Shown here: positions 23,912 through 46,346 of the stretch, in pieces
Numbering within the stretch: position 1 is the first letter of the stretch
Layout: the number at the start of each line of letters is the position of its first letter
DNA from: a virus
Lineage: Duplodnaviria; Caudoviricetes
Length of the DNA stretch: 54,711 bases
Virus record (IMG/VR): IMGVR_UViG_3300030119_000989
Span: 1-54,711 of that record
Reading direction: 5' to 3' (one strand)
Made by a program: the position numbers and the translations under genes
Notes under the pieces: generated by a model
Told to the model about the DNA's origin: nothing
The model's input: only the letters and a program-made list of their open reading frames with translations
Databases searched by the model: none

Positions 23912-24446
23912 TGCGGTGATGTTGACTGGCGCCGAAATGTCCATGGGCAAAGGCAACTCCAGACTCGCGCGCATCAGCATCACACGCCGGCACGATCACT
24001 GGCGACTGCTGTATTGGTACATGGTCATCCTTCAGCAGCATGGTATTGAGATGCGCATTCGTGGCTATCGCTCGGCAGTGCGCACGGGTTCCATCACGTT
24101 CTCGAGCCTCCATCAACCGCTCATGGTCCGGGCCTATCGGCGCTGGTACAGATCAGTGGGCAAGCAGCTACCGTTGGATCTGCTGATCAACAAGCCCACC
24201 TTGTGCATCCTGCTTGCAGGTGCCTTGAGGCGATGGTCCAGGGGAAGCCAGAAGTCCAATCAAATCATCATCCCAACACCGCCCTGCCACCTGATGAGTC
24301 TGGGCAGCTTAACCAGCCAGGTGCGGGAGCACGTTCCCGTCGTGTCCTCGTGCATGCTCAGTCGCAGCGGGAGGATCCGCGTGCCAGCAGATGCGGCAAT
24401 GGCGTTTGTAGACGGCGCGGTGCCGCAGAGTATTTGGAGATATTGA
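23850..24446 (+). CDS. Degenerate LAGLIDADG-fold protein (start uncertain)
   Basis: Overall LAGLIDADG_2-like pattern (SITFSSLHQP....YRRWY...KQLP.DLLI...TLCIL), but both acidic catalytic motifs are replaced (MLTGA, LLAGA). Confidence 0.55.
   Translation: MTNERLNPNSIVFGDLYQLLDAVMLTGAEMSMGKGNSRLARISITRRHDHWRLLYWYMVILQQHGIEMRIRGYRSAVRTGSITFSSLHQPLMVRAYRRWYRSVGKQLPLDLLINKPTLCILLAGALRRWSRGSQKSNQIIIPTPPCHLMSLGSLTSQVREHVPVVSSCMLSRSGRIRVPADAAMAFVDGAVPQSIWRY
24274..24317 (+). promoter_or_regulatory. Putative late promoter motif, copy 1
   Basis: CAAC-ACCGCC-N26-TAACCAGC upstream of the LamG gene. Confidence 0.65.
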
Positions 24447-24495
24447 TGGCATATTTAGTAGCCAATCAAAGTACTTGCCTGACAGGGGGTGGTGC

Positions 24496-25257
24496 ATGAC
24501 ATTTTCCGCAGATTTAGGTATTCAGGCGGGGGTCATGTACGCAGCAGGCTCCGGTCCGGTCACGCCTCCGTTTACCTGGCTTTGTTGGGTAGAGAGAGTT
24601 GATGGTTATGAATCTAACACGTTGGTGGCACACGATGCCACCGCTGGCAACGTCATATCTCTGTACATTTACAGCGATGGCAAGTTTGCCCCATCAATTG
24701 CATCATCTGGAGGCGCGCTGGAACTGACAGATCCAGCGGCGTACATTGGTACTGGTTGGCAGCAGATTGCATTTACATGGGCTGCAAACGGTGACGTAGC
24801 ATCGTATGTTGGAGCCACACAAGTTGCGACAGCCAACACATCGCTTGAGCCCGTGGTCAATAACGAATTGATCATCGGCGGTTTTAACTTTGGCGGCGGC
24901 TTTTTTTTCCCAAGCGCAACTTGCAAGGTGTCGCTGCCCGCGCAATGGACACGTGTCCTCACCCCCGCCGAAATCGCCACCCTTGCAGCAGGTGGACCAC
25001 CTGACACCATCTCAACCGGCTTGGCCAGGTACTGGGAAAATCTGACAGGTGCCGGACCGCATGCTCCCAGAGTTGGTTCAGGCAATCTGGTCGAATATGG
25101 CACTGTGACCGACGCCGCGTCCGACCCGCCGGTAACCTTAGGTGGCGGCCCGACTGAACCATCATCCCCAATCCTTTGTCCTTTCAATTCGCGCATCATC
25201 GACGCGGGGCATCATGGGCGGTCAAGGATTATTTCAAGATCGAGGTTAATCGCATGA
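24496..25257 (+). CDS. LamG/concanavalin A-like virion protein
   Basis: FTWLCWV, GWQQIAFTW......YV, WTRVLTPAEIATLA. Confidence 0.75.
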   Translation: MTFSADLGIQAGVMYAAGSGPVTPPFTWLCWVERVDGYESNTLVAHDATAGNVISLYIYSDGKFAPSIASSGGALELTDPAAYIGTGWQQIAFTWAANGDVASYVGATQVATANTSLEPVVNNELIIGGFNFGGGFFFPSATCKVSLPAQWTRVLTPAEIATLAAGGPPDTISTGLARYWENLTGAGPHAPRVGSGNLVEYGTVTDAASDPPVTLGGGPTEPSSPILCPFNSRIIDAGHHGRSRIISRSRLIA

Positions 25258-25796
25258 GCTACCAACCTGGCGACATGGTGACCGGCAGATTCTTTGCACG
25301 CCACACGGACACTGGCGCATTGACCGATGCGGATAGCCTGCCCACCGCAGCGATCTATCTCAACGGCACGGTCGCTGGTTCTGTCACAGTGACCATCACC
25401 AATATCACAACCGGCATCTACACCTATTCATTCACCTTACCCGCTGATTGGTCTCGCGGAGACCACATTCAATGCGAGGTATCAGCCACCGTGGACAGCA
25501 CAAGTGATATCGGCACGGTCATCGAATTCACACTCGAATCCGCGCTGGGCCTGGAGTTCACCGTTGACGATACATCGATCACGCCCACCACCACGTACTG
25601 CGCATTGAATGACGGGCCTGCTGGTGATGATGTTTTAAACGGTCGATTCCTGGTCTTTAGCAGTGGTGCAAACAAGGGGCTTGCACTACCAATCTCTGAC
25701 TACAACGGCACCACGAAACAAGTCAACTTTGCAACCGCATGGCCCACCGCACCGGTCGATGGTGATCAGTGTGAGGTCATTGGTCTGACCGTCTGA
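25254..25796 (+). CDS. Putative virion structural protein
   Basis: T-rich beta-type protein; ATGA-coupled to the LamG gene. Confidence 0.6.
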   Translation: MSYQPGDMVTGRFFARHTDTGALTDADSLPTAAIYLNGTVAGSVTVTITNITTGIYTYSFTLPADWSRGDHIQCEVSATVDSTSDIGTVIEFTLESALGLEFTVDDTSITPTTTYCALNDGPAGDDVLNGRFLVFSSGANKGLALPISDYNGTTKQVNFATAWPTAPVDGDQCEVIGLTV

Positions 25797-25828
25797 TCAT
25801 CGAACTACAACCTCAAGGAAACACTGAT

Positions 25829-26236
25829 ATGACACTTTCGAACTATGCTGAAGACGCAATCCTCAACGCCCTATTTGGCAAAACCAGTGATTTTGGTGCA
25901 TTGGGTTCTGCTCCAAGCATGTACGTCGGACTTTCAACGGCTGATCCTGGCGAAGACGGATCGAGCGATGCGCCTCCATCTGGTGACGGCTATGCCCGTG
26001 TGAGCACCGCGGCCAGCGATTGGAACGCAGCATCTTCTGGCAGCCTTGACAACGCCAACATTATTCAATTCCCAGAAGCAACTGGATCATGGGGGACTAT
26101 CACGCACTTCACGATCTATGACGCTCCAACTGGTGGGAACTTGATATTTTCAGGCGCTCTTGACACGCCTAAAGCATTCATTTCTGGCGACACGCCTTTA
26201 TTCGCCGCGGGTGACCTGAGTTTCACTGCAAATTAA
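25829..26236 (+). CDS. Phage tail-fibre-associated small protein
   Basis: SNYAEDAILN...YVGLSTADP...YARV...FPEATGSWGTITHFTIYDAPTGGN, a widespread phage structural pattern. Confidence 0.75.
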   Translation: MTLSNYAEDAILNALFGKTSDFGALGSAPSMYVGLSTADPGEDGSSDAPPSGDGYARVSTAASDWNAASSGSLDNANIIQFPEATGSWGTITHFTIYDAPTGGNLIFSGALDTPKAFISGDTPLFAAGDLSFTAN

Positions 26237-26249
26237 TCTAATGTGACAT

Positions 26250-27302
26250 ATGATCGACAGACGCAAACTATTGTTTTTCCTTACTGGCAATGCCAATCAA
26301 ATGATTGGACAATCAAGCCTGTCTGTCACTATGTCATCATCTTTATTGTCAGCCCACAAACTTCAAGGGAATTGCACGCTGGAAGTTGCTGGGAGTGCGG
26401 AACTATCAAGGGACCGGAATCATATTCGAGGGACATCAGGACTCACGGTATCTGTGCTGTCATGTGCCGTATCCCGAAAACCAACGCTAATCAGCAATGC
26501 TTTACCAACAGTATCTGCCAATGGCAACCTGTCCAGTGTAAAAAAAGTATCTGGATCATCAGGATTTGCAGTTGATACTGCAGCAGAACTCAACAGCCAG
26601 AAACTCATCGGCAGCGCTGCGATGAGCGATTACACGGCATCTGGACATCTGTCTTCCGTTCGCAAAATCACAGGCAATACCACCGCCACCATTGAAACGA
26701 CAGCACATGTGTCCAGCAGCAAACGGCTTATCGCCAGTGAAAGCTTTGCCATCAACGCGGCCATGGCCATCATCTATTACCATCAGTTTTTGCTGCATGA
26801 AGGCGATGTTGTCATTGACCAAACCAGCGGCAGTGTTCGCCAACTCGACCTTAACCACCTGCTCCCCCAGGGCCTCTGGACGCTCGGCCTGTCCTACGTG
26901 GACCAGTACGGCAGTGAATCCCCCCAGGCTATGATCGAAGTGGAATTTGACGCTGATGGTCATGTGGTCAGTCAACTACGTGAGATTGACACGATCGAAG
27001 CGGCAGCACTGGCAGGTGGCTACATCGCTCTGATCATCACACTGGAAGACAAGCAAGCCTGGCACCGCAATCCGATGGGCTTTGAAGTGTTCGATACATC
27101 TTCGCAGATGGTCATCGGCACGATCGCGGCATCTGGCAACGGCGCGTACATCACCGAAGCGACAGCCGGACCATTTACACACGGACTGACCAAGCGACTG
27201 AAGGTGCGGCCGTATGATGCTACAGGCTATGGGGTGTGGTCGAATGTGCCGTCGGTAGTGGTGGATTCTGAAGGGCCAGTGGCGCCGGTGGTGGTGGGGT
27301 AA
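26250..27302 (+). CDS. Putative virion structural protein with S/T/A-rich repeats
   Basis: Repeats of about 21 aa (ANGNLSSVKKVSGS, ASGHLSSVRKITGN) and an Fn3-like C-terminus. Confidence 0.55.
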   Translation: MIDRRKLLFFLTGNANQMIGQSSLSVTMSSSLLSAHKLQGNCTLEVAGSAELSRDRNHIRGTSGLTVSVLSCAVSRKPTLISNALPTVSANGNLSSVKKVSGSSGFAVDTAAELNSQKLIGSAAMSDYTASGHLSSVRKITGNTTATIETTAHVSSSKRLIASESFAINAAMAIIYYHQFLLHEGDVVIDQTSGSVRQLDLNHLLPQGLWTLGLSYVDQYGSESPQAMIEVEFDADGHVVSQLREIDTIEAAALAGGYIALIITLEDKQAWHRNPMGFEVFDTSSQMVIGTIAASGNGAYITEATAGPFTHGLTKRLKVRPYDATGYGVWSNVPSVVVDSEGPVAPVVVG

Positions 27303-27343
27303 AACCGCCATGCCCCATTTTCTGTCACAACTCGACAAGTACC
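27300..27343 (+). promoter_or_regulatory. Putative late promoter motif, copy 2
   Basis: TAAA-ACCGCC-N26-CAAGTACC, seven nt before the terS ATG. Confidence 0.6.
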
Positions 27344-27842: not shown

Positions 27843-29319
27843 ACCTGCCATCCAAGAAATCGACTGGCATAAAGTGCCGCGTGAAGTTGCCTGCTCACGC
27901 CCGGACTGGTTTGCGGCCTGGGTCACGCGGGACGATCCACCTGCTTTGCAGTACCAGGTGTTTGAGCACATCGCCTATATCGCCAACATCGTGACACGTG
28001 CCATCCGCAAGGGTAAGGGTCGTTTGATCATCAACCTGCCACCGCAGCATGGCAAAAGCCTGTTCCTATGTCGCTGGCTGGTTGTCTGGATCCTCGAACA
28101 CTGGCCTGATCTACGGATCGTCTCCGCTTCGTACTCTAAGGATCTGATTTACGGGCACTCCAGCTTTGCACGAGATCAATTCGACCAGCGTCAGGAACTC
28201 AACACCAGTTTGAAGCATGACAACAAAGCTGTTGGCCGATGGAACACACACACCGGACTGGGTGGGCTCTATAGCACTACCATTGGCGGTGCAATCTCCG
28301 GATTCTCGATGGATGTGGGTTTGGTAGATGACCCGTACAAAGACTGGGCAGACGCATGGTCCCCTGCCACCCGTCGCAAGGTCAAACAATGGTTCGACTC
28401 TGCGTTCTACACACGAAAGCAGGAGAACACCACCATGATCATCCTGCATACCAGGTGGCACCCAGATGATCTCTCCGGCTACCTGCTCAAAGATCACCCT
28501 GACGATTGGCAACTTATTCGATTGCCAGCCATTGCCGAACAAGGCGATCCCATGCGTCGTTATATCGGTTCACCGCTCTGCCCGCAGCTGCACACACTCG
28601 AATCACTCATGGGCAACAAGCAATCGCAAGGCATCTGGGACGCGGTCTATCAACAGGATCCCAAAGGCTTGGGTGATGACGCTCTTTACAAGCATTTCAG
28701 CGAGACTCGAAACGTCAGCGATACTGTTTTACTCAATTATGACCTGCCGCTACACATCTCAATCGACTTCAACAAACGCCCAGGTAGCCACATGCTCATT
28801 GGCCAATACGACAAAGACGCGGACATGATTACCACCGTCGATGAGATTTACGGCGACCGGTGGGACACGATCCAGATCATGCGGGACTTCACAGATCGCT
28901 GGTGGCCACAGAACTGCAAGCACAAATCGTTTTCAGAAATCAACGTGTTTGGAGACAGTGCGGGACGCTCCGAATCCATTTACACCAGTGATAGCGGCTA
29001 CAGGATCATGCAACGTGTATTGCAACCGCTGGGCGTACCGGTCTACAAACGAGTACCCAAGAAAGCCCCGGATATCATCGACAGCGTGTTGGCCACCAAT
29101 GACGCTCTGTCAGACATCAACGGGCAGGTGCATTGGCTCATTCATCCACGATGCAAGAAGCTGATCCGCGACCTGCGGGAAGTGATGCCTGATGAGTATG
29201 GCAAGCCGGACAAGGATGCTGATTTTACACTGACCCACGCCTCAGACGCGGAACGCTACAGGGTACATCGAATCAGGCCGTTGAGGATAAATGAGCCAAG
29301 CGGTCGTGTGAATGTGTGA
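27820..29319 (+). CDS. Terminase large subunit
   Basis: Walker A INLPPQHGKS, Walker B VGLVDDP, coupling HTRWH, nuclease ISIDFN and HASDAERY. Confidence 0.95.
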   Translation: MTRVTVNEPAIQEIDWHKVPREVACSRPDWFAAWVTRDDPPALQYQVFEHIAYIANIVTRAIRKGKGRLIINLPPQHGKSLFLCRWLVVWILEHWPDLRIVSASYSKDLIYGHSSFARDQFDQRQELNTSLKHDNKAVGRWNTHTGLGGLYSTTIGGAISGFSMDVGLVDDPYKDWADAWSPATRRKVKQWFDSAFYTRKQENTTMIILHTRWHPDDLSGYLLKDHPDDWQLIRLPAIAEQGDPMRRYIGSPLCPQLHTLESLMGNKQSQGIWDAVYQQDPKGLGDDALYKHFSETRNVSDTVLLNYDLPLHISIDFNKRPGSHMLIGQYDKDADMITTVDEIYGDRWDTIQIMRDFTDRWWPQNCKHKSFSEINVFGDSAGRSESIYTSDSGYRIMQRVLQPLGVPVYKRVPKKAPDIIDSVLATNDALSDINGQVHWLIHPRCKKLIRDLREVMPDEYGKPDKDADFTLTHASDAERYRVHRIRPLRINEPSGRVNV

Positions 29320-29360
29320 CACCGCCCCTACACATTTGAAACTTTTTTTCTCCAACCACA
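29317..29360 (+). promoter_or_regulatory. Putative late promoter motif, copy 3
   Basis: TGAC-ACCGCC-N26-CAACCACA upstream of the small TM gene and portal. Confidence 0.75.
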
Positions 29361-29395
29361 TGGCATAACCCTGATACCCCGGACGGAGAACGCCC

Positions 29396-29596
29396 GTGTT
29401 TGAATTAATCGCCATGCGGTCTGCATCAGCAGCACTGGCCACAATCACTTTTGCCACCGCCACGGTCGTAAGCGAAAGCTCGTTGATTCCCTTGGGGTTA
29501 GTCATCATCGCATGCGGCATTACTTGGAAAGCCGCTAGCAAACTCACCGATCTTGAAGCCCGCGTGAAAGCCTTGGAGAACAAGTCCAATGGCTGA
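29396..29596 (+). CDS. Small membrane protein, holin-like
   Basis: Hydrophobic segments followed by a charged coiled-coil tail; GGAG RBS. Confidence 0.45.
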   Translation: MFELIAMRSASAALATITFATATVVSESSLIPLGLVIIACGITWKAASKLTDLEARVKALENKSNG

Positions 29597-30899
29597 AAAG
29601 CCCAACGATCTTAAAAACAAGCCTGTAATCGGCGAGCAAACCGGATCACAGGGAACTTCTGCCGGTATCTCGACGTTCATGCAGATCCCCGGCTTGGATG
29701 CAACACCTGCAGGTACATATCAGACTTATCGCTCCATGCTCATGGACCCCACCATTGCACTGGCTCGTGCCGTGGTCATGTCCCCTCTCGTCTGCAACAC
29801 ATGGTCGGTTAAATCCACGGATGGCACGCCGGAAGATCGCGTGTCATTCATTGAAGACATGATTGATCCAATGACGCGGCACTTCGTCCGCGCCATGCTC
29901 CGCAGTCTTGACTACGGATGGGCAGGATTTGAAAAGGTTTTCGAGGTTTCAAACGGGCGATGGACGCTTAAGCGACTCAAGCCGCTGCTCCACGACATCA
30001 CACAGATCAATATTGACAGCAACGGCAAGTTCCAGGGATTCAAACAATCATCAACCGATCTCCCACGTGAAAAGGCATTGCTCTTTACCTATGACCGCGA
30101 AGGCGACAACCATTATGGCCGTCCGCGATTGGAAAACATCCGCGAAACATGGTCATGGTGGAAACAGGCCAATGAAGGTGCTGCACGGTACGACCGCAAA
30201 ATTGCAGGCGTCATGCCTGTGATTCATTATCCGCCCGGTAAATCCATAGACAAAAGCGGCATTGAACGCGACAACTACGAGATCGCCAAAGGTGTTTTAG
30301 ACAGCATTGCTGCAGGTCATGGTATCGCAGTACCCAACCGTAAAGCCATGGAAGATGATAGCGATGGCAAGGAATGGTCCATCGAGTTGATGGAAGATAA
30401 AGGTGGTCGCCAGCCCAGCTTTATCGAACGGCTGCGGTATCTGGATTCGCTCAAATTCCGTGGCTATCTTCGTCCCGAACGTTCTGCCCTTGAAGGTCAA
30501 TTCGGCACCAAGGCTGAGGCTCAAACTCACGGTGACCTTGGCCTACTCGATGGCGAGCAATTGCAGTCCGACCTTGCCGAAACGATTAATTGGCATGTGG
30601 TTGACCAACTTCTGGTTCTTAATTTCGGCGAGGATGCACGTGGGTCTGTCTACTTTGAACCCAATCCAATCCAAGACGAGTCTCGAACATTGGCACGCGA
30701 GGTCATCAAGGGCATGACCGCAACGCCTGACGGCCGCGAGTTCTTGCGAGTCTATCTGGATTTTGAACAAATCTCCGAAATGACCACGCTCCCCACGCTG
30801 CCTGACGCACCTGACCAGAGCGACAACAAATTGGTCGATGCCGACAATCCTGCCAAATCCATTATGGACGAGCTTGAGAGCACAGTCACAAAGGGGTGA
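29589..30899 (+). CDS. Portal protein (Mu gp29/DUF935-like)
   Basis: SLDYGWAGFEKVF, NHYGRPRL, AEAQTH...INWHVVDQLLVLNFG; follows terL. Confidence 0.85.
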   Translation: MAEKPNDLKNKPVIGEQTGSQGTSAGISTFMQIPGLDATPAGTYQTYRSMLMDPTIALARAVVMSPLVCNTWSVKSTDGTPEDRVSFIEDMIDPMTRHFVRAMLRSLDYGWAGFEKVFEVSNGRWTLKRLKPLLHDITQINIDSNGKFQGFKQSSTDLPREKALLFTYDREGDNHYGRPRLENIRETWSWWKQANEGAARYDRKIAGVMPVIHYPPGKSIDKSGIERDNYEIAKGVLDSIAAGHGIAVPNRKAMEDDSDGKEWSIELMEDKGGRQPSFIERLRYLDSLKFRGYLRPERSALEGQFGTKAEAQTHGDLGLLDGEQLQSDLAETINWHVVDQLLVLNFGEDARGSVYFEPNPIQDESRTLAREVIKGMTATPDGREFLRVYLDFEQISEMTTLPTLPDAPDQSDNKLVDADNPAKSIMDELESTVTKG

Positions 30900-30902
30900 T
30901 CC

Positions 30903-32657: not shown

Positions 32658-32890
32658 TGCATACACCACTTCAACTACTCAGCATGGATTTCGACGACGC
32701 AGTCGATGCAGTCATGCAGGATACGCCAGGTATTGAACGCAATGTGGCTGAGCAGGTTGTCAATACTGTATTCACCGGTGGTGATGTTGTTGCGATTGAT
32801 GAGAGCGATATTCCTGCATACGAGTCCGACCCTGATAGCTTCCTTAAGGCTCGGCAGCGTCAAAAATACCTTTCTGAGCAACCGTCATAA
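32657..32890 (+). CDS. Small acidic protein, candidate MuF immunity protein
   Basis: ATG overlaps the MuF stop (TGATG); 77 aa, acidic. Confidence 0.5.
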   Translation: MHTPLQLLSMDFDDAVDAVMQDTPGIERNVAEQVVNTVFTGGDVVAIDESDIPAYESDPDSFLKARQRQKYLSEQPS

Positions 32891-32931: not shown

Positions 32932-32936
32932 TGTCG

Positions 32937-35113: not shown

Positions 35114-35146
35114 TTTTCTGAACTGTGAATTAACCATCGGCCACGA

Positions 35147-36660: not shown

Positions 36661-36673
36661 AAGAGAGCATCAC

Positions 36674-37632: not shown

Positions 37633-37643
37633 GAAACGCACAC

Positions 37644-38120: not shown

Positions 38121-38139
38121 ATTTTTTTCTTCAACCACA
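38096..38139 (+). promoter_or_regulatory. Putative late promoter motif, copy 6
   Basis: TGAC-ACCGCC-N26-CAACCACA upstream of the tail tube gene. Confidence 0.75.
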
Positions 38140-38165
38140 TGGTGACTCATTAACAGGAGATCATC

Positions 38166-38972
38166 ATGGGTAACACATACACGGGCATGGGTGGGACAGT
38201 CGACGGCGCCAACACAGTGCGCACTTGGTCCACCTCTGAGACCGAAGAAAACAAGCCGTACAATGCATCCAATACCCTTGGCGGTACTGGCCAGCTTGGT
38301 GGCATCAAGGATTGGAGCGGTTCGTACACTCAATATGGTCACACCCCAACACACTTCCCCGGCGACACCATCACGTTCGTCGGGTTCGACGGTGCCAACA
38401 AGACCACCGGATCCGCGATCATCTCGCAGGTGGAAATTACCGCCAATCAAGAGTCTGGCGACATCGAAAGTATTACCGTGACGCTGGCGGGCAATGGCGC
38501 CCTGACGCACACAACCGGGACGATTACCGACTCCACACTTCCCAACCCGCCAAGTTCTCTGTCGCTCAAAGTTGAGTTGGCTGAAACCGACACGTTTACC
38601 GAGCTTGATGATGTGCGGTCGTGGACGCTCACTATCGCTTGCGATCTCAAAGAGTATGCATCGTCCAGCACCAGCGGCTGGAAGAAACGCAAGGCTGGCA
38701 ACATCACAGCGAGTGGTTCAATCTCGTTCTACAACCAGGACGTGCGTACCGCCCCTGATATTGGCGATGTTCGCAAGCTGCGTCTCTACGTCACATCGAC
38801 GCTGTTCTACCTCATTCATTGGGCACGATTCGGCGAAGGTGCTTACGAGACATCCATCGAAGGTGCTGAACTCGCCAGCGGCACCGCGAACTGGAACTGG
38901 TCCGGCTTTAACGCTGGCGTTGCAGGCACGATCACCAAACCCGACACCACGGAATGGTGGCCAGCAGCGTAA
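38166..38972 (+). CDS. Major tail tube protein with two tandem tube-like domains
   Basis: VRTWS...GIKDWSGS and VRSWT...GNITASGS halves; AGGAG RBS. Confidence 0.72.
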   Translation: MGNTYTGMGGTVDGANTVRTWSTSETEENKPYNASNTLGGTGQLGGIKDWSGSYTQYGHTPTHFPGDTITFVGFDGANKTTGSAIISQVEITANQESGDIESITVTLAGNGALTHTTGTITDSTLPNPPSSLSLKVELAETDTFTELDDVRSWTLTIACDLKEYASSSTSGWKKRKAGNITASGSISFYNQDVRTAPDIGDVRKLRLYVTSTLFYLIHWARFGEGAYETSIEGAELASGTANWNWSGFNAGVAGTITKPDTTEWWPAA

Positions 38973-39016
38973 GCGACTGAATCAATCAAACAAACCTCCT
39001 GACAAGGATCAATCCC

Positions 39017-39403
39017 ATGCCCACTCATTCACTCACTCGCGGCTGGCAGCGTAACAGCGATGTCGAAACCAAACGCCAGGACATCACCGCCGATGGTGAA
39101 ATCACAGCCGAAATCGCAGTCCCGGATAGCTCGACCGATCTGCAAGCCACTGTTGGCATCGATGTGTCGGAAATCAAATCGCTCTACCTGCTCTCCACGC
39201 AGGATGTGACCATCGAAACCAACGATGGCAGCTCAGCAGACGACACAATTGCTCTCAAGGCTGGCATTCCGCTCATCTGGGAAAACGTGTCTGGCTATTA
39301 CGACAACCCCCTGAGCACTGATGTTACCGACCTGTACATCACCAACGCATCCGGCAGTGATGCTACTGTGACACTGCGTGTGTTGCAGGATGTGACGCCA
39401 TAA
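39017..39403 (+). CDS. Putative tail-associated protein
   Basis: Beta-rich 128-aa ORF between the tube and chaperone genes. Confidence 0.55.
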   Translation: MPTHSLTRGWQRNSDVETKRQDITADGEITAEIAVPDSSTDLQATVGIDVSEIKSLYLLSTQDVTIETNDGSSADDTIALKAGIPLIWENVSGYYDNPLSTDVTDLYITNASGSDATVTLRVLQDVTP

Positions 39404-39440
39404 CAACTGATTAACAACCACTCACACGCAAGGAGAAGCT

Positions 39441-39914
39441 ATGAGTGATCTATCTACCGTGACCGCCGCGCCGATTGAAATCGAGCTTGGCAGCAAGACC
39501 TACAAGATGCGTCCACTGACGATTGCCGACTTAGGCGATTTTGAGAACTGGGTTCGTCAAAAGATTATCGCTAACAGCATGCACGCAGCGCGTGATCTGC
39601 CTGCCCGAGACCGCCGTGATTTGACCAGTGAAGCCATCAACGCTGCTTCACGCGTAACCTATGACTCGCGCGAAGCCCAAGGCATGATGCAGTCCATTGA
39701 GGGGGCAGGCCAACTCATTTACCTGTCACTACGCCACGAGCACCCCGACATCACACGTGAGCAAGTTGTGAGCAAGCTTGCCAATGTGCAGCAATTCTCC
39801 AATCTGGCTGATTCCCTAATGAAAATCTCAGCCCCTAATCTCAATGGAGGCGAATCCCCAAAAGCGGAGCCGGTAAAACCGGCCATCACACAGACATCGC
39901 CAAGCTCTTTGTGA
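39441..39914 (+). CDS. Tail assembly chaperone (gpG-like)
   Basis: IELGSKTYKMRPLT pattern; position before the tape measure gene. Confidence 0.75.
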   Translation: MSDLSTVTAAPIEIELGSKTYKMRPLTIADLGDFENWVRQKIIANSMHAARDLPARDRRDLTSEAINAASRVTYDSREAQGMMQSIEGAGQLIYLSLRHEHPDITREQVVSKLANVQQFSNLADSLMKISAPNLNGGESPKAEPVKPAITQTSPSSL

Positions 39915-40069
39915 TTTTGAGCCAAGAATATGGATGGACGCCTAGACAGATCGGCGACCTCACTCTAGCCCAGGCGGTGGTTTATGCGTCAAGCGGCGAA
40001 CGGCAAGTTGGTGGGAGGCAGAAATTTAAGAGCTTGGCTGCTGCTATTGCAGCTACTAAAGGATCGTGA
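39857..40069 (+). other. Programmed -1 frameshift site and gpGT-like extension
   Basis: C CCA AAA at 39857-39863, then hairpin GCCGGT-AAA-ACCGGC; the -1 frame is open to TGA 40069 and encodes EYGWTPRQIGDLTLAQ. Confidence 0.8.
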
Positions 40070-40072
40070 CCT

Positions 40073-42508
40073 ATGCCAATTATCGGTGAAGCTGCAATCA
40101 ATCTCGTGGCCAACACTCGCCCTTTGCAAAGCTCGCTGGGAAAAGTGGGCGGCATACTTCGCAATAACCTTGCACCTATTGCGAAGATCGGCGGGCTTAT
40201 CGGCGCGGCAATCTCTGGCGCAACTGTAGCAGCAGGCGTTTTTGGAACAAAGATGGCCGCTGACATGGAACAGACTGAGATTGCTTTTGAATCCATGCTT
40301 AAATCCGCAGACAAAGCCAAGCAAGTTATTGGCGATCTGAAAAGATTCAGCGATGTTACCCCATTCGAGCCGGATGAAGTGATTTCTGCGGGACGTGCAC
40401 TGATTGCGTTTAATGAGCCAGCCCACCAGTTAACGCAAACCCTGACCCGGATCGGCGACATCTCTGCTGGGTTGCGAATCCCCCTTGGCGAACTAACTGA
40501 AATCTACGGGAAAGCGCGTGTCAATGGGCGGTTGATGATGGAGGATATCAACCAGCTTACCGGTCGCGGCATCCCAATCATCGGCGAGTTGGCCAAGCAG
40601 TTTGGCGTCACAGAAGGCGAGGTGCGTAACCTGGTCAGCACCGGCAAGGTTGGGTTTAAGAATCTTGAGCAGGCGTTTACGGACATGACCAGCAATGGCG
40701 GCATGTTCTTCGATTTGATGGCCAAGCAGTCCAAGTCTGCAATTGGATTGTGGAGTACATTTCAAGGCGCGATCAAGGATGTTTTTCGTGACTTCGGAAA
40801 GATTCTTCTTGAGGAGCTAAACCTAAAGCAAGTCCTGTCTGCTGCGATTGACCAGCTAAAAGGCTTCAGAGAGACATTCATCCCAACAATTCGATCTGCA
40901 ATCCAGATTACACGTGAGTTTGCCACGGTTGTCGCTGGTGCCACAAAATGGATATACAACTTCATGTTTGGCGGCGAAGGGCTGCGCGGTGTAATCGGAA
41001 AGGTCAAGCTGGCTGTGGCTGGATTGGCTATTGGGTTTACCGGACTGTCTGCTGCCATTGTTGGCACTCAAGCCGCCTTACTGGTGTTTACTAGGACATC
41101 GCTACCCGAACTGATCGCTTTGATCAAGGTTATCATTAAGTCGCTAAAGGCGTTTACAGCTTCTCTCTGGACGTTAAATACTGCCGTTATTGCGGTCAAG
41201 GTTGCGATTGGTGGTGCCCTTATCACGGTCTTGTTGGCACTTGGTGCAGCATTTCTCAAAGCCAAGGCTGAAGGGATTGGGCTTGATGAGGTATTAATGA
41301 ATTTAGCAGACGACGCGGGCATCATCTACAACAAAACACGCCATCTGCAAAATGCCCAGGATAACCTTGCTCAATCCAGCAAACGACTTGCAACAGCAAT
41401 GAAAGCTGTTGATGCTGCGGATAGCACAGAAAAGCAATTGACCGCGAGTGTTGATCTCGTCAAGGCGCTTGAAGATCGCATTGCTGCAATCAAGCGGTAC
41501 AGCATTATTGCACGCGACCAGGCTGGCGAGATGAGCATGTCTCAATGGCGTGTTGATGTGCGAAATATCAAACTGCTTAGTGAGCAGTTAAACAAGGCCA
41601 AGCAAGCTGTCAAAGATCTGCAAGATCAAATAGCAAACGGATCGTCGGACCAGCACGTCGAGGACATCAAGCGGATTGAAAAGGCGTTAAAAGACCTCAA
41701 CACTGAGGTGCAACACTTTGGCATGTCCCAGGAAGATATCCTGCTGGTTGATTTTCTGGCTATGAAGAAGCTGGGCGTTGCGACTGATGAACAAGTCCAA
41801 AAACTCACAGCATTGCAGAATGATCTAAAACGACTCAAAGGTGAATCATTTCTTGATGACCTCCAACGAGAACTCGACACGATGGGTATGGACAGTATTG
41901 AGTTAAAGATTTTTGACCTGCAAAACATGAAGCTTGGCGCCGATCAACTCAAACAGGCACAAGAGATTTTGCAGCAGATGCGAAGCCAAAGTGTTGAGAA
42001 CTTGATCGGCGACCGTCAGCAAAAGGTTTCATTCTTTGGCGCTCCTGATGAGATGGAATTGGCAAACCTCAAGGGAGCAACTGAAGATCAAAAAGACCGC
42101 CTACGTGAGTTGAACGGCGAGCTTAAGCGCCTTTCCATCGGTGAACACATTGCCAAACTCCGCATTGATGTTGAAGAAAGTGGTCTTGGCGATATTGAGA
42201 GAAGGCTAAACGAATTGAGGCGTGAAGGTGCTGATGCATCACAAATCGCCGAGGCACGTGCTCTACTTGAGCAACAGCAGGAAAACCAAGATCGCCCTAA
42301 TCGCATCCAAACCGTCGGACTCACCGACATGTTCAACCGCATTCAAACCGCGATCAGCCCCAAGGACGATCCACAGAAAAACACCGAGAAGAACACCAAG
42401 TCGCTGGTGGATTTGGCTCAAAAGACCAACAAGCTGCTGGATACGGTGGCTCAAAATACCAAGACGAGCACCACGGCCAGCACGGTTGCCCTTGGGTTTG
42501 GTGCTTGA
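40073..42508 (+). CDS. Tape measure protein
   Basis: AFESMLKSADKA...TPFE...IGDISA...EDINQLTGRGIPI; helical, 811 aa. Confidence 0.93.
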   Translation: MPIIGEAAINLVANTRPLQSSLGKVGGILRNNLAPIAKIGGLIGAAISGATVAAGVFGTKMAADMEQTEIAFESMLKSADKAKQVIGDLKRFSDVTPFEPDEVISAGRALIAFNEPAHQLTQTLTRIGDISAGLRIPLGELTEIYGKARVNGRLMMEDINQLTGRGIPIIGELAKQFGVTEGEVRNLVSTGKVGFKNLEQAFTDMTSNGGMFFDLMAKQSKSAIGLWSTFQGAIKDVFRDFGKILLEELNLKQVLSAAIDQLKGFRETFIPTIRSAIQITREFATVVAGATKWIYNFMFGGEGLRGVIGKVKLAVAGLAIGFTGLSAAIVGTQAALLVFTRTSLPELIALIKVIIKSLKAFTASLWTLNTAVIAVKVAIGGALITVLLALGAAFLKAKAEGIGLDEVLMNLADDAGIIYNKTRHLQNAQDNLAQSSKRLATAMKAVDAADSTEKQLTASVDLVKALEDRIAAIKRYSIIARDQAGEMSMSQWRVDVRNIKLLSEQLNKAKQAVKDLQDQIANGSSDQHVEDIKRIEKALKDLNTEVQHFGMSQEDILLVDFLAMKKLGVATDEQVQKLTALQNDLKRLKGESFLDDLQRELDTMGMDSIELKIFDLQNMKLGADQLKQAQEILQQMRSQSVENLIGDRQQKVSFFGAPDEMELANLKGATEDQKDRLRELNGELKRLSIGEHIAKLRIDVEESGLGDIERRLNELRREGADASQIAEARALLEQQQENQDRPNRIQTVGLTDMFNRIQTAISPKDDPQKNTEKNTKSLVDLAQKTNKLLDTVAQNTKTSTTASTVALGFGA

Positions 42509-42511
42509 TCG

Positions 42512-42555
42512 TGACACCGCCGTTCTCCACCTGACTTGCCTAATGGGTAACCACC
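42512..42555 (+). promoter_or_regulatory. Putative late promoter motif, copy 7
   Basis: TGAC-ACCGCC-N26-TAACCACC just after the tape measure stop. Confidence 0.75.
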
Positions 42556-42689
42556 ATGCGAAGGCAAAAGTAGTAACCCACAAACAAACTTCCAGCGCCC
42601 CCGCTACCACAATCTGCTTTTCCTTCACGGGCATGGCCCTGCCGTAGGGCCTGCCCATTTTTCAATCTCCATGTGAAGGAAATCACATC

Positions 42690-43529
42690 ATGGCCCTCAC
42701 TGTCGAATTCGAAGAACTCCCCGGATCACCCAAAGAACAATACACCGCCACCGGGTTCCAGGTTACCCGTCGCTTCAAATGCCCGTGGTCGCGGCGTCAC
42801 AAGTTGGCCCGACAGTTCAAGGCCAAGCAGGGTATCGCCTACAAGTACAACGTGGCCGCACGTGTGACAGATGTGGCCATCGATCCGTTCTTCGACAATG
42901 AAGGCAAGGTCGATGAAAACCCCAATCCCCGCGAGATCACGTACTCCGACGCCTTGCTCACGGTGACATACCGCACGCCGGACGGCTACACCGTGATTGA
43001 TTCGGATGATCCTGAAACGCTCATCACCGAGAATGTTGATGATTGGACGGAGTTTTTGACAATATCAGGGCGTCGGCTGTGGTGGGGATCCGAGGGAAGC
43101 GATACTGTCGTCGGCCCATTTCAACCAAGGCCGCTTGGCGATGAAGCATCGCCCGGTATGCTGATCACTGGCATGACGTGGAAGATCACACGATATGAAG
43201 TGCTTTCGGTACCTCAAGTATGGCGAGACCTCAACGGTTACGTCAATTCGGACGAACTGTATTCGCGGACACTCGGCATGACCTTCGCACCGGAAACGCT
43301 GCTTTACATGCCGATGACCATGCAAAGAACAATCACCAGTGATGGCTTAAAGGCATGGACAGTCACGCAAACCATGTCGCATCGCTTGACCGGATGGAAT
43401 AGCTTCTATGATCCCAAACGGGCAGGCTGGTTTCCAGTGTACACGCCACCAGTCGGTGAAAATAAGGAACAAGATCAAAACCGAATTTACACCCCAACCA
43501 CATTCAAAGACAAGCTAAACTGGAAATAA
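42690..43529 (+). CDS. Putative distal tail / tail-tip protein
   Basis: Position after the tape measure gene; beta-rich. Confidence 0.55.
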   Translation: MALTVEFEELPGSPKEQYTATGFQVTRRFKCPWSRRHKLARQFKAKQGIAYKYNVAARVTDVAIDPFFDNEGKVDENPNPREITYSDALLTVTYRTPDGYTVIDSDDPETLITENVDDWTEFLTISGRRLWWGSEGSDTVVGPFQPRPLGDEASPGMLITGMTWKITRYEVLSVPQVWRDLNGYVNSDELYSRTLGMTFAPETLLYMPMTMQRTITSDGLKAWTVTQTMSHRLTGWNSFYDPKRAGWFPVYTPPVGENKEQDQNRIYTPTTFKDKLNWK

Positions 43530-44231
43530 TCAGTTCGGAATCTGAAACTTTCGTGGATAATTGGTCCATTCAAAACCATCACGTTCCCTGTTTGGCTTGG
43601 CACGCCAGACAGGGAATTCTTTTATTTGATGCGTGTGCAAATAATCAAATAGTTGCTGTGGGACAATTGCTAATTCAAATTCTCGATATTGGTTATAAGC
43701 GTCATAGCTCTTTGCTCCAGACGTGTACTTTCCTGTCTGTTTCTTTCCTAATGTCACAACTTTTGAATTCAATTTTGGTTTATCGAGACTATAGACAAAT
43801 GGATTGTTTCGTACTTTGGGCTGGTAAATAAAGAATCCATCATCGGTAAGATAATTTACTGTTCCCTCCAACACCTCATATCCCTCCGGCGCGTCCAGCT
43901 TCATGTGTTTGTACACCTCACCGATCCACCGACACCGCACATCCCCAATCGGCTCGTAAAACCACGGTGCTGAAGCGTCGTGATACGCATCGCCTTTGCC
44001 TCGCTTTGCTCGCTTCTGAGCCTCCTTCATCACCTCAACACACCACAGCTTGTCGCCAATCTTCACCCAGTTGGGTGCCTGCTGCTCAAACAGCCGCTTG
44101 ACGCCCGTGGGTTGATCTTCCCACTTCGGTCCCGCCTGTTTGTCTGCAATCTTGTTCGTGCCATCCTCAGCCGTTGCAACCATGCTCAAACTCAGGATCA
44201 TCATTCCAATCATCAATGTGCGACGTTCCAT
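43530..44231 (-). CDS. Secreted protein (moron) antisense to the tail operon
   Basis: Signal peptide MERRTLMIGMMILSLSMVATA; AT-rich 3' half; opposite orientation. Confidence 0.7.
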   Translation of the reverse strand: MERRTLMIGMMILSLSMVATAEDGTNKIADKQAGPKWEDQPTGVKRLFEQQAPNWVKIGDKLWCVEVMKEAQKRAKRGKGDAYHDASAPWFYEPIGDVRCRWIGEVYKHMKLDAPEGYEVLEGTVNYLTDDGFFIYQPKVRNNPFVYSLDKPKLNSKVVTLGKKQTGKYTSGAKSYDAYNQYREFELAIVPQQLFDYLHTHQIKEFPVWRAKPNRERDGFEWTNYPRKFQIPN

Positions 44232-44266
44232 GTCGCCCCCTTTCGTGTGTGAACTCTACGCCTACA

Positions 44267-44310
44267 TGATACCGCCTCACGCCATCCCGTAAATGGGAAA
44301 GGCAATCACA
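44267..44310 (+). promoter_or_regulatory. Putative late promoter motif, copy 8
   Basis: TGAT-ACCGCC-N26-CAATCACA upstream of 44344. Confidence 0.72.
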
Positions 44311-44343
44311 TAATGACCGTCAGTGGCAAAATGAGGATTCCAG

Positions 44344-45000
44344 ATGCCAGGCACAGACCAACTTCGATATGTCAAAGCAGGCGACCGCCCTAGCGCGAGC
44401 CAGCACAACATCATTGTCGATGCAGTCAAGGAAAAACAATCAGGCGCCAATGCTTTCTCTGGGCAAGGGTATACCCAGCGACCAGACGCCAGCAAGTTTT
44501 CCCGCGTGGCCAGATTCCGGGTGGACGAAGAGATTCCAGACCCAATCGAAGCACGTGACTATCTCAAGTGTGTTGAGTTGGACGGCAGTGACGTGGTTTC
44601 AGATCAGATTGTTGTCGCCTTATCTGAACACACCAAACCACTCAGCGTACTCTACGCCAAAGATTTGATCCTTTTCGCTGCTGAGGTGATCGACGATTTT
44701 GGTGAGACTGATGATGATGACAATCCAATCATGTGGTTGGAAGTGGTGCCGCCGGTGCTAGTGGGCGATCCAGTGGATTTGACATACACAGGCGGCAGCA
44801 CAACCGCAGTCACCGGCACGTGGGACAGGGACAATCAAACCGGCAACGGCATGACCAAGCGGTACCAGCGGATTGAGTGGGATGACGAAAACAAAAAGCT
44901 CGTCGCATTCGAGTGGACGGAAACAGTTGATGCATTTGGCCGCAAGGTAGGCAGCACGCTGGAAGTGGCGAGAGATATTGTTCAGTTCGAGGCTTGCTAA
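44344..45000 (+). CDS. Putative tail-tip protein
   Basis: VKAGDRPSASQHNIIVDAV N-terminus common to minor tail proteins. Confidence 0.55.
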   Translation: MPGTDQLRYVKAGDRPSASQHNIIVDAVKEKQSGANAFSGQGYTQRPDASKFSRVARFRVDEEIPDPIEARDYLKCVELDGSDVVSDQIVVALSEHTKPLSVLYAKDLILFAAEVIDDFGETDDDDNPIMWLEVVPPVLVGDPVDLTYTGGSTTAVTGTWDRDNQTGNGMTKRYQRIEWDDENKKLVAFEWTETVDAFGRKVGSTLEVARDIVQFEAC

Positions 45001-45542
45001 TGGCGTTACCACTTAATGCAAATGGGAATCCAGTGCTGGGACCGGGTGGGAAGCCTGCGTTGGATTGCGGGTGTTGTGAGTTACCAATGAAACTGACACT
45101 CACCTTGCAAAATATGGTCACACACGAGGGCTACTGCGAGACCAGTGAAAACACTGGATACTCCGCCACTTGGGGCGGAAGCTTGAATGGTGTGTATGAA
45201 ATCACTAAGGGTGAAACACAGCCAGTCGAAGGATCGACGTATTATTCCACCCAAATCAACACAGTTTCATTGTTTTTCGAGCTTTTTGCGGGTGGTGTTC
45301 GAACGTATGCCGCGACGGTAAGTTATTTCAACGTCGAAATTTTAATAGAAAATGACACAAGAAACATAACGTTTATATTGGTTCAAGCCAGCCCTAACGC
45401 TGGTAATCAATTTGCGTGGGAAAGCAGTGAAGTGCTAAAAAGCCTTGGCGACACTATCGACAACCCCGCTACATCATGTTCAACCGGTAGTACATACACA
45501 CCGACGTATAACGGCGAGGCGATTGTGGATTACACATCATGA
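45000..45542 (+). CDS. Hypothetical late protein (N-terminal CGCC)
   Basis: TAATG coupling; beta-rich. Confidence 0.55.
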   Translation: MALPLNANGNPVLGPGGKPALDCGCCELPMKLTLTLQNMVTHEGYCETSENTGYSATWGGSLNGVYEITKGETQPVEGSTYYSTQINTVSLFFELFAGGVRTYAATVSYFNVEILIENDTRNITFILVQASPNAGNQFAWESSEVLKSLGDTIDNPATSCSTGSTYTPTYNGEAIVDYTS

Positions 45543-45931
45543 TGCAATACCAACCAACTGATGACGGAGGCAGGATCGCGCAAGCAGATACCAAATTCGG
45601 ACGATACCGGATCATATGGGATGCCGAAAACAACATTACCGAAATGATGCACGAGCCACGACACCCGCAACAATCATCAGGGATGTCACATATCATTCAC
45701 GGCGCCGCAGGACTGGCAAAGGCCAAGCTCGGTATCGATCGGGCGTCGGATGGCGTGATTGAACATCGAACACAAATCTGCAAAACCTGCCCCAAATCCA
45801 TTTTTAAGGATGCGCAACTCAGAAAATGCAGTGCATGTGGCTGCGGCTTGATCGACAAAAAGCTGGTCGTCGCCAGTGAAAAATGCCCTCTCGGCAAGTG
45901 GGATGCTGTCACTGACAAACCGTCCGCTTGA
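45539..45931 (+). CDS. Cys-rich hypothetical protein
   Basis: RTQICKTCP...CSACGC...CPLGKW. Confidence 0.65.
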   Translation: MMQYQPTDDGGRIAQADTKFGRYRIIWDAENNITEMMHEPRHPQQSSGMSHIIHGAAGLAKAKLGIDRASDGVIEHRTQICKTCPKSIFKDAQLRKCSACGCGLIDKKLVVASEKCPLGKWDAVTDKPSA

Positions 45932-45972
45932 CACCGCCCGACATCCCCTTGCCGCCATCATCACCAATCCCA
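45929..45972 (+). promoter_or_regulatory. Putative late promoter motif, copy 9
   Basis: TGAC-ACCGCC-N26-CAATCCCA, four nt before ATG 45977. Confidence 0.72.
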
Positions 45973-45976
45973 TGGC

Positions 45977-46219
45977 ATGAGCCTGTCGCGCCCTGAACTC
46001 CACGAACTGAGCCCCAGCGAATTGCTGCATGTGCATCATGGTTGCATGGTGGCAATCCAAACCAGCCTTGCGGTTGGCGATGATGGCATCGATGAGTTTC
46101 TGGTACGTGCCAAAGCGGTCGCTGCTGAACTCCATAACCGCATCAGTCCCCACAACCCCATTGAAGTCCCAGATCATCGCCGCAAACTCAAGTCCGGCCG
46201 CACAAGGGCGCGGCGATGA
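45977..46219 (+). CDS. Small hypothetical protein
   Basis: ORF directly after motif copy 9. Confidence 0.55.
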   Translation: MSLSRPELHELSPSELLHVHHGCMVAIQTSLAVGDDGIDEFLVRAKAVAAELHNRISPHNPIEVPDHRRKLKSGRTRARR

Positions 46220-46302
46220 AAACCCGCTGGATCAACTGGTGGCATGTCATCGAGATGTTGGCATGGATTGCCTTTTATCTACTCGCTTTTTCTGCTGGCA
46301 CC

Positions 46303-46346
46303 TGACACCGCACTGCCCCATCAGTTGTCGAACTGCGTCAACTGCA
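46303..46346 (+). promoter_or_regulatory. Putative late promoter motif, copy 10
   Basis: TGAC-ACCGCA-N26-CAACTGCA, four nt before ATG 46351. Confidence 0.65.

Follow-up and report, generated by a model that had tools for sequence, protein, structure and literature searches.

The late region of a prophage from a marine Planctomycete carries eleven copies of a bipartite DNA motif that are probably late promoters, dependent on a sigma factor encoded by the phage itself. The prophage is the 54,711-nucleotide (nt) stretch of IMG/VR virus record IMGVR_UViG_3300030119_000989, here called the window, and lies in contig C34 of a 6.0-Mb genome (6,007,192 bases). The motif is comprised of an upstream box built around ACCGCC and a downstream box, YAAYCAC(M), referred to below as box 2. 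By the test of conservation in related phages the motif is real and functional. An open reading frame (ORF) just ahead of the first copy is a divergent extracytoplasmic function (ECF)-like sigma factor of the sigma-70 family, for which core binding and promoter-specific initiation are predicted. Its neighbour, here called gpX, is a conserved protein that is predicted to bind domain 4 of the sigma factor. We infer that this sigma factor reads this motif, and likewise where transcription starts and what the partner does.

A bipartite motif in the late region

The initial annotation of the window listed ten copies of the motif with an exact gap of 26 nt between the two boxes. Both observations were borne out, with ACCGCC in nine copies, ACCGCA in one (46307) and the listed 8-mers at that distance in all ten. 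An eleventh copy, with ACCGCC at 46706, was absent from that list and has a gap of 27 nt rather than 26. The copies are lettered A to K in order (Table 1). The early region had been described as lacking a complete copy, and none was found there on either strand at up to one mismatch. Placement upstream of late genes holds generally, but the copy at 24278 is inside a conserved gene, that at 33652 is inside ORF 33148–34281 and that at 38100 overlaps ORF 37644–38120. The labels "tail tube" and "tail tip" given to some of the downstream genes were not confirmed, the ORFs at 38166, 42690 and 44344 having no PHROG match.

At up to one mismatch the pattern has 8 matches in the window, all on the plus strand and all among the original ten. 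At up to three mismatches it has 62, against 26.5 ± 5.3 in shuffled sequences, and none of 100 shuffles reached 62. Specificity is lost at two to three mismatches, therefore the copies at 27304 (2 mismatches) and 46307 (3 mismatches) need additional evidence. The proposed count in the host chromosome found the strict pattern six times on both strands of the 6,007,192 bases, where approximately 0.8 occurrences would be expected genome-wide from the counts of the boxes. Five of these are in the window, all on the plus strand; the sole match outside it, C81:110872, is antisense inside a 681-aa ORF. In an unbiased count of the plus strand from 22001 to 48700, ACACCGCC ranked first of 19,479 8-mers, with 9 occurrences observed and 0.62 expected (Poisson 2e-8), and its reverse complement does not occur. 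One of the nine, at 42742, has no other feature of the motif. The second-ranked 8-mer, CATCACAC, was set aside, its copies being in unrelated coding contexts. A possible degenerate copy ahead of the major capsid gene (TAACCATC, 8 nt upstream of ATG 35147) has a poor upstream box and was not counted.

Counting from the A of ACCGCC as 0, alignment of the copies showed further conservation at A-2, C-1, C+9, C+12 and A+13. The upstream element is thus 16 nt long, AC-ACCGCC-N3-C-N2-CA from -2 to +13, or ACACCGCC-N3-C-N2-CA, and box 2 occupies +32 to +39. The 18 nt between them (+14 to +31) are without conservation. In three copies a tract of 6–7 T residues is found just before box 2; these precede the ORF at 29396, the internal start at 33727 and the 268-aa ORF at 38166. 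It had been argued that a 26-nt spacing does not fit a single sigma factor. In that argument the upstream box was drawn too short: measured from ACCGCC the spacer is 26 nt and outside the 15–19 nt quoted for sigma-70, whereas the conserved block extends to +13, so that the spacer between its C..CA end and box 2 is 18 nt and inside that range. Domain 4 of a sigma factor may read either part. Two conserved elements are present on one strand, upstream of genes, as in bipartite promoters of the sigma-70 type. Other assignments were tried and rejected. TGACAC as a -35 element would require a -10 at +18 to +23, where there is no conservation; TTGACA-like words at +14 to +22 vary in position and several are the stop codons of upstream genes; and TTGCAA-N17-AACACC, found in long copies of the related prophage G079 (below), has a second hexamer that is not -10-like.

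Searches for other signals at the copies were negative. None of 23 terminator-like sites between 27000 and 46999 coincides with a copy, and the T tracts of copies C, E and F have no G+C-rich stem before them. No Rfam family was matched at the copies, the sole match in the window being a tmRNA-like stretch at 18576–18664 on the minus strand. The exact full motif has seven single matches in viral contigs, in unrelated contigs and without clusters. Apart from one weak match to the gene at 25829 these contigs have no homology to the late proteins, and the matches look like chance. The upstream-box pattern was matched 5–20 times per genome in nearly every one of 144 genomes of the host family, with no phage-linked enrichment. 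On its own it is too unspecific for finding prophages.

Conservation in related phages and position at gene starts

Searches with the sigma factor and the terminase protein TerL identified five related phage lineages from Phycisphaeraceae, G079, IMG/VR phage C, G141, G143 and L024, in which the sigma factor is 41–74% and TerL 75–87% identical to that of the window. G079 is a whole syntenic prophage (sigma 41%, TerL 76%) and phage C is present on three contigs (63% and 76%). G141 and G143 are short contigs of metagenome-assembled genomes (MAGs), and L024 is a 1.5-kb metagenome contig without the sigma locus. Sites were placed by gene order in the window and the five lineages, which gave a table of 36 sites that, being drawn from related phages, do not count as independent events. 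Of the 36, 29 have ACCGCC exactly (19 of the 25 outside the window). C+9 is retained in 35, C+12 likewise in 35, A+13 in 27, A+33 in 30 and A+34 in 31. Box 2 is at the same offset in all 14 sites of the four lineages closest to the window.

Counterparts of nine of the eleven window copies are present in G079. Copies I and J have none, and there is none upstream of the G079 orthologue of the gene behind copy J. Within 200 nt, four of the nine window–G079 pairs have no longer word in common than the upstream box itself. Copy A has orthologues in G143, G141, phage C and G079 (5/5 lineages including the window), copy C is present in 5/5 lineages, copy D in the 4/4 covered, copy E in 4/4 and copy F in the 3/3 covered; copy G is covered in the window and G079. 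At copy D the start codon and the N-terminus of the protein are also kept in G079, and at copy E the first hexamer of G079 is degenerate. The orthologues of copy B in phage C, G141, G143 and L024 keep C+9, C+12, A+13 and CAATCAC at N26. The G079 orthologue of copy H ends 4 nt before the ATG of the same protein, and that of copy K is at 24701 of the reversed G079 contig. Three copies on that reversed contig (312–355, 11433–11476 and 20547–20590) share approximately 30 more upstream bases (AACGTTGCAAGTGAG...CAACGCAAC). One of these long copies is about 100 nt upstream of the sigma gene of G079, which would allow autoregulation; in the window there is no copy upstream of the sigma gene.

Four copies had been noted 4–7 nt before an ATG without a Shine-Dalgarno (SD) sequence, and they are as described (ATG 27351, 32937, 45977 and 46351). 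Most other late genes carry AGGAG-like ribosome sites, and the usual anti-SD is found at the end of the host 16S rRNA, so that the four SD-less genes behind box 2 stand out. Across the lineages, box 2 is 4–7 nt from the ATG in 11 of 12 SD-less sites. At the SD-led sites of the window (29396, 33727, 38166 and 44344) the start codon is 26–35 nt after box 2. Judged from these distances, some copies probably give leaderless mRNAs. In copies B, C, D and I, the TGA or TAA at -4 to -2 is the stop codon of the upstream gene; in copy G the upstream stop codon precedes ACCGCC by about 10 nt. With stop codons inside or beside the motif, the intergenic regions at these five copies are essentially the motif.

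Copy H stands behind a minus-strand gene, 43530–44231, that is set among plus-strand tail genes. Its protein is kept in G079 at the same place and on the same strand (tblastn, 27% identity, E 2e-11), and the gene looks like a moron-type insertion with its own promoter. In G143 there is a minus-strand ORF between terL and copy C, and the copy has stayed with the downstream genes. These two copies behind minus-strand genes must start the transcription of the plus-strand genes that follow them. Occurrence on one strand only, restriction to the late region, a place immediately ahead of gene starts and conservation at equivalent positions in related phages together make up the behaviour expected of late promoters, as the initial annotation had proposed.

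Two further features were seen at individual copies. At copy D, box 2 is in the loop of a hairpin (32918–32935) with the stem CAGG-N6/7-CCTG, extended by 1–2 pairs and with its end 2–3 nt short of the ATG. Four lineages (window, G079, phage C and G141) retain the stem; G079 has a different loop sequence, and its stem extension shows compensatory change (AACAGG/CCTGTT versus GGCAGG/CCTGTC). Copy E is in the linker of ORF 33148–34281, which encodes 377 aa without a PHROG match and is conserved end to end in G079 (53% identity). The internal start at 33727 looks like that of a scaffold-like C-terminal product, nested in the ORF and expressed from its own promoter.

The sigma factor, its partner and the competing readings

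The sigma factor of the window is divergent enough that, taken alone, it falls below curated cut-offs. It matches Sigma70_r2 at E 2.6e-4 (21.2 bits against a cut-off of 24), and its best NCBIfam match is TIGR02937, sigma70-ECF, at E 8.2e-7 (28.8 bits against 42.9). A profile search of 1.84 billion representatives identified a sparse family of 54 proteins at E ≤0.001. Among 30 aligned members, 19 match Sigma70_r2 (best E 1.9e-19), 6 match Sigma70_r4_2 and 3 match Sigma70_ECF. The family profile matches solved sigma factors over positions 34–177 of 180, including SigH (3mzy, 4.6e-18) and FliA (4.8e-17). An earlier structure model from 7 sequences was poor (pLDDT, the model's local confidence score, 51.8); when redone with 30 sequences the AlphaFold2 model reached pLDDT 87.6, with the four C-terminal helices at 90–96. 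All of the Foldseek PDB matches listed were sigma factors, and whole ECF and SigH chains were matched. Sigma2 (region 2) is recognised through the profile, which aligns with region 2 of many solved sigma factors, and sigma4 (the region 4 helix-turn-helix) through the profile alignment, the 6 of 30 members, the model and Foldseek. The family profile, the model and the structural matches together indicate that the phage carries its own two-domain sigma factor.

The gene is 367 nt upstream of copy A, and the sigma locus and the late sites are both present in all four lineages in which both were recovered (G143, G141, G079 and phage C). No homologue of the sigma factor was found in viral contigs, metagenome contigs or 50,697 phage records, and genome contigs gave only the two MAG contigs that were already known. 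The genes at 23336 and 23850 had been put forward as candidate factors for the motif. The first is the sigma factor, and the second is gpX, the conserved neighbour.

Codon-periodic conservation across three genomes marks gpX as a real gene. It adjoins the sigma homologue in G143, G141, G079, G062, G019 and IMG/VR phage C. Five of eight gpX members match Pfam LAGLIDADG_2 (PF03161), with a best E of 0.0011 and all below the 25-bit cut-off; the window protein itself reaches E 0.17 and 12.3 bits. Its Atlas feature score for LAGLIDADG is 0.92, in a band reached by 4–10% of shuffled proteins, and its profile matched nothing among PDB sequences. With the motifs placed by eye, the catalytic acidic residue of LAGLIDADG proteins is not conserved (E, E, E, E, E, Q, R and A after the invariant G27 region), and the second motif region reads LRRW, without an acidic pair. 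These matches weakly suggest that gpX is LAGLIDADG-like.

Modelled as a complex, gpX and the sigma factor scored 0.86, against 0.00 for the best of three controls. Of 80 solved complexes 58 reached this mark, as did 2 of 110 mismatched pairs; these counts hold only roughly, as our own alignments were used. At least 95% of contacts are shared between runs, and the pLDDT of the partner is at least 86. The predicted interface joins residues 119–171 of the sigma factor, the domain 4 helices before the last helix, with residues 48–82 of gpX, and both sides include residues that are invariant in their families. Such a partner may be either a co-factor that helps to read the extra upstream block or an anti-sigma factor.

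Distant pairs of sigma factor and partner were also found, at L011 (G062:C145, 1652–5053) and L012 (G019:C17), with sigma factors 26–34% and partners 26% identical to those of the window. The neighbours of the G062 pair are a pseudouridine synthase and a glycosyltransferase, and a 672-aa DUF1349/ConA-like protein comes after the pair, in an order that echoes the sigma–partner–LamG order of the prophage. Nothing motif-like was found among the repeats at the G062 sigma locus. In 401 sampled genomes of the phylum, the gpX profile was matched in two, G000 and G062.

In the mechanism that we propose, host RNA polymerase would transcribe the sigma gene (23336–23911) together with the overlapping gpX gene after induction, and core polymerase carrying the phage sigma factor would then initiate at each of the eleven copies. 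YAAYCAC(M) would serve as a -10-like element, with the start a few nt further on. A start at approximately +44 to +47 would place the core of box 2 at about -12/-7 and C..CA at about -36/-32, where sigma domain 4 normally reads, and ACACCGCC would be one more helical turn upstream, at about -47/-40. The core of box 2 would likewise be at about -12/-7 if transcription began with the A of the ATG. The genes at 27351, 32937, 45977 and 46351 would be expressed from leaderless or nearly leaderless mRNAs, and those at 29396, 33727, 38166 and 44344 from mRNAs with short SD-bearing leaders. On domain 4, gpX would assist in reading the extra upstream block or would hold the sigma factor in check.

Several observations weigh against dependence on the phage sigma factor. 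In the copies, the best-conserved blocks are 26 nt apart, and the -35-like assignment draws on C+9, C+12 and A+13 only. The consensus of ECF promoters is an AAC-containing -35 and a CGT-type -10 at a spacing of 16–17 nt, which the motif does not resemble; the AAC or GAC 5' of ACCGCC is 32 nt from box 2. In G079, YAAY is at +32 in only 2 of 10 sites, with CAATAC-like words 1–2 nt off in several others, and its terS site has the box-2-like word 70 nt, instead of 32, after ACCGCC. Lineages differ in the first hexamer of the terS site (CTCGCC, TCCGCC, CCCTCA and ACCGCA), and in L024 the terS ATG is 1 nt after box 2, which cannot fit a start 5–8 nt after a -10 element. On G143 contig C743 there is no copy within 60 nt after the orthologue of 26250–27302. 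Copies A, E and F are in coding sequence, and part of their conservation may therefore come from the protein. The sigma gene of G079 (L009, G079:C103) has an in-frame TAA in the interdomain linker, either a broken gene or an assembly error. The pairs of G062 and G019 are beside ordinary host genes with no ACCGCC at the place matching copy A, and the setting of the G062 pair suggests that the module may be a host-type ECF unit captured by the phage. Finally, the partner on sigma domain 4 could equally be an inhibitor.

Are the copies late promoters that are read by a host sigma factor? The upstream box would then be the site of a separate phage activator, such as gpX or another early product, and the phage sigma factor would be employed otherwise. 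At about -47/-40, ACACCGCC is in the usual place of class II-type activators, and the gpX gene is co-conserved with the lineages that carry the motif. There is also a parallel in WhiA, which is LAGLIDADG-derived and is reported to activate a leaderless gene from upstream of the -35 (PMC10243135). However, the CAACCAC-like box 2 does not resemble the TATAAT-type -10 of the consensus scan, none of the 20 sigma-70-like sites listed by that scan coincides with a copy in the plus orientation, and the sigma gene is directly upstream of the first copy in every lineage in which the sigma locus was recovered. The prediction that gpX binds the phage sigma factor also argues against a separate activator, and we consider this reading unlikely.

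Or, is the motif a signal in RNA, either a processing site in a long late transcript or a start or restart signal for ribosomes at the SD-less ATGs? This would account for the strand specificity, for the several copies that begin at the stop codon of the upstream gene and for box 2 being 1–7 nt before SD-less ATGs; the 1-nt case of L024 is easier to reconcile with an RNA signal than with a -10 element. The hairpin around box 2 at copy D, in which changes to the stem keep the pairing, also fits. Yet this is the only site with shared secondary structure, and Rfam gave no match. The genes ahead of copy H and the G143 copy C are on the minus strand, with no upstream plus-strand ORF or obvious plus-strand transcript to feed these copies, and in five window copies 26–178 nt separate box 2 from the next start codon. 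We rejected pairing between the boxes and the 3' end of the host 16S rRNA, complementarity reaching 4–5 contiguous bases at most in a stretch that we take to be paired in helix 45. An RNA signal is accordingly rated as quite improbable. The least probable reading is a DNA signal unrelated to transcription, be it a polar word for recombination, packaging or segregation or a repeat spread by duplication. An 8-mer over-represented on one strand is what such a word would give, and the three G079 copies that share 30 nt more upstream are as duplicated cassettes would be. The flanks of most copies are unrelated, though, so that they are not recent duplicates; distances to gene starts are fixed, a second conserved box is found at fixed spacing, and in the host there is no enrichment (5–20 upstream-box matches per genome in the 144 family genomes).

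Prophage setting and known systems

The phage is temperate, tailed and siphovirus-like, and is integrated in a genome of the family Phycisphaeraceae, Planctomycetota, as named from its close homologues. No close relative was found among the 50,697 phage records, the best terL matches being below 35% identity. The coordinates of the motif copies and of other features are collected in Table 1.

Table 1. Motif copies and other features of the window, with coordinates and strand
Feature	Position	Strand	Description
Copy A	24274–24317	+	CAAC-ACCGCC-N26-TAACCAGC; inside 3' part of gpX, 158–178 nt upstream of LamG-like gene
Copy B	27300–27343	+	TAAA-ACCGCC-N26-CAAGTACC; ends 7 nt before SD-less terS ATG 27351
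Copy C	29317–29360	+	TGAC-ACCGCC-N26-CAACCACA; TGA ends terL; T7 tract precedes box 2; 35 nt before SD-led GTG 29396 (66-aa ORF), then portal gene at 29589
Copy D	32888–32931	+	TAAC-ACCGCC-N26-TAACCACC; ends 5 nt before SD-less ATG 32937
Copy E	33648–33691	+	CGAC-ACCGCC-N26-CAACCAAC; T6 tract; inside ORF 33148–34281; 35 nt before internal SD-led ATG 33727
Copy F	38096–38139	+	TGAC-ACCGCC-N26-CAACCACA; T7 tract; 26 nt before SD-led ATG 38166; overlaps last codons of ORF 37644–38120
Copy G	42512–42555	+	TGAC-ACCGCC-N26-TAACCACC; after tape-measure gene, 134 nt before ATG 42690
Copy H	44267–44310	+	TGAT-ACCGCC-N26-CAATCACA; divergent intergenic region, 33 nt before SD-led ATG 44344
Copy I	45929–45972	+	TGAC-ACCGCC-N26-CAATCCCA; ends 4 nt before SD-less ATG 45977; TGA is the stop of 45539–45931
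Copy J	46303–46346	+	TGAC-ACCGCA-N26-CAACTGCA; ends 4 nt before SD-less ATG 46351
Copy K	46702–46746	+	CAAC-ACCGCC-N27-CAATCAC; inside end of 46351–46800, ~62 nt before 46809
Sigma factor	23336–23911	+	ECF-like, sigma-70 family, sigma2–sigma4, 191 aa; from profiles and structure model
gpX	23850–24446	+	Conserved partner, ~183–198 aa, start uncertain; overlaps sigma ORF; 3' part holds copy A
Integrase	1–1182	-	Left end of prophage
Early genes		-	RecT-like, YqaJ-like, two DNA methylases
cI-like repressor	20103–20753		Helix-turn-helix and S24 peptidase
Late genes	~22.7–48.7 kb	+	LamG-like, Gp80-like, terS, terL, Mu-type portal, minor head, major head, tape measure
233-aa protein gene	43530–44231	-	Signal-peptide-like N-terminus; between plus-strand late (tail) genes, just upstream of copy H
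Terminator-like hairpin	36622–36654	+	13 pairs and T-rich tail; after head genes; consensus scan only
Terminator-like hairpin	43583–43617	+	14 pairs and T-rich tail; after 42690–43529, inside 3' part of minus-strand gene; consensus scan only
Second tyrosine integrase	48928–50220	-	Directly right of last late genes
DnaB-like helicase gene	51016–51963	-	Right of last late genes, within 48928–54711

The second integrase and the DnaB-like helicase to the right of the late genes suggest a second mobile element in tandem. The segment 24475–27302, which separates the sigma module from terS, contains the LamG-like gene, a 206-aa ORF, a Gp80-like fibre or head protein and a 350-aa ORF, an unusual location for genes of this kind. 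The window and G143 differ in this segment, and its flanks are 70–81% identical. The LamG-like gene downstream of copy A (start 24475 or 24496) has a Laminin_G_3 match. In the early region, the 89-nt Rfam tmRNA match scored 51.1 bits against a gathering score of 47, and ARAGORN called no tmRNA or tRNA in the window. One possibility is an ssrA fragment, either phage-borne or a remnant of integration.

Of three marine metatranscriptome runs, all from one study, only one contained part of the window (0.19 of words). In it, 23 short contigs matched within 28451–45281 at a depth of about 3–4, some of them spanning copies D, E and H. With 22 of the 23 at ≥99% identity, this phage or a nearly identical one was present, and possibly transcribed, in that marine sample. 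Such contigs cannot show starts, strand or level and may come from DNA carry-over, and they are neutral on the question of promoters.

Phage sigma factors with promoters of their own include T4 gp55 and SPO1 gp33/34. Additionally, phiEco32 and phage 7-11 are reported to encode sigma factors with their own middle or late promoters. Phage-sigma-dependent late promoters are thus already known, and the new promoter class proposed in the initial annotation was overstated; what is new here is the consensus, the long upstream element and the weakly LAGLIDADG-like partner. The likeness is that a phage protein of the sigma-70 family would redirect the host core polymerase to many phage-specific promoters before structural genes. 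Unlike those phages, which are virulent and infect Proteobacteria or Bacillota, this one is a temperate siphovirus-like phage of a Planctomycete with a cI-like repressor and integrase. The consensus also is distinct, having a 16-nt upstream element with its best block about one turn upstream of the usual -35.

With ECF (group 4) sigma factors such as HrpL, the window protein shares the two-domain sigma2–sigma4 build, a partner gene directly downstream and overlapping, and a putative bipartite promoter. Box 2 also has a core, CCAC, that is similar to the -10 half of the hrp box consensus. The differences are that the window family scores below the curated cut-offs, that there is no AAC-type -35 at 15–17 nt from box 2 and that the partner is LAGLIDADG-like rather than a recognisable anti-sigma domain. 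Middle promoters of T4 provide another comparison. There AsiA and MotA appropriate the host primary sigma factor and the second protein reads DNA. In both cases a small phage protein is on sigma domain 4 (here by prediction) and an unusual upstream element replaces the normal -35, but the target in T4 is the host primary sigma factor and here it would be the phage's own.

Among temperate phages of Gram-positive hosts, regulators of the RinA/ArpU type are comparable in position and in the proposed role. RinA is reported to be a phage regulator that switches on the packaging and morphogenesis genes (PMC3152322), and it acts at one promoter upstream of terS. Here too a putative phage-coded regulator is just upstream of terS; the difference is between one promoter and at least eleven copies over 22 kb.

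WhiA of Streptomyces, which acts with WhiB, is reported to combine a degenerate LAGLIDADG homing-endonuclease scaffold with a helix-turn-helix that is like sigma domain 4 and reads GACAC upstream of the -35 of a leaderless gene (PMC10243135). In the prophage, the LAGLIDADG-like gpX is predicted to hold a true sigma domain 4, and some of the downstream genes look leaderless. The upstream box begins GACAC in 7 of the 11 window copies, a lead and not evidence, and in G079 it mostly begins AACAC. Here there are two separate proteins, no WhiB-like protein was seen, the LAGLIDADG assignment is weak and DNA binding is putative for both proteins. A bolder version of the scheme, a split WhiA, is conceivable, if doubtful. 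In it a catalytically dead LAGLIDADG protein would clamp domain 4 of the ECF-like phage sigma factor, and the two proteins would jointly read the asymmetric 16-nt element, extending a helical turn beyond the normal -35 on the upstream side, of a tripartite promoter (ACACCGCC / C..CA / YAAYCAC) that gives leaderless late mRNAs.

To our knowledge, almost nothing is known of gene control in the phages of Planctomycetota, and the promoters of the phylum are poorly defined. Title-level listings of the literature gave no paper on a sigma factor of a Planctomycete phage or on a LAGLIDADG–sigma pair. If the partner is a co-factor, homing-endonuclease scaffolds would be tied to basal transcription in a second and independent lineage besides WhiA. 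Were the split arrangement true, gpX would be the first sigma co-factor derived from a homing endonuclease, and a possible evolutionary intermediate towards regulators of the WhiA type. The prophage offers a testable regulatory unit, with a small orthogonal sigma factor, a partner and eleven natural promoters of graded make-up. This may be of use as a source of genetic parts for Planctomycetes and in probing how a sigma factor reads an element longer than the normal -35.

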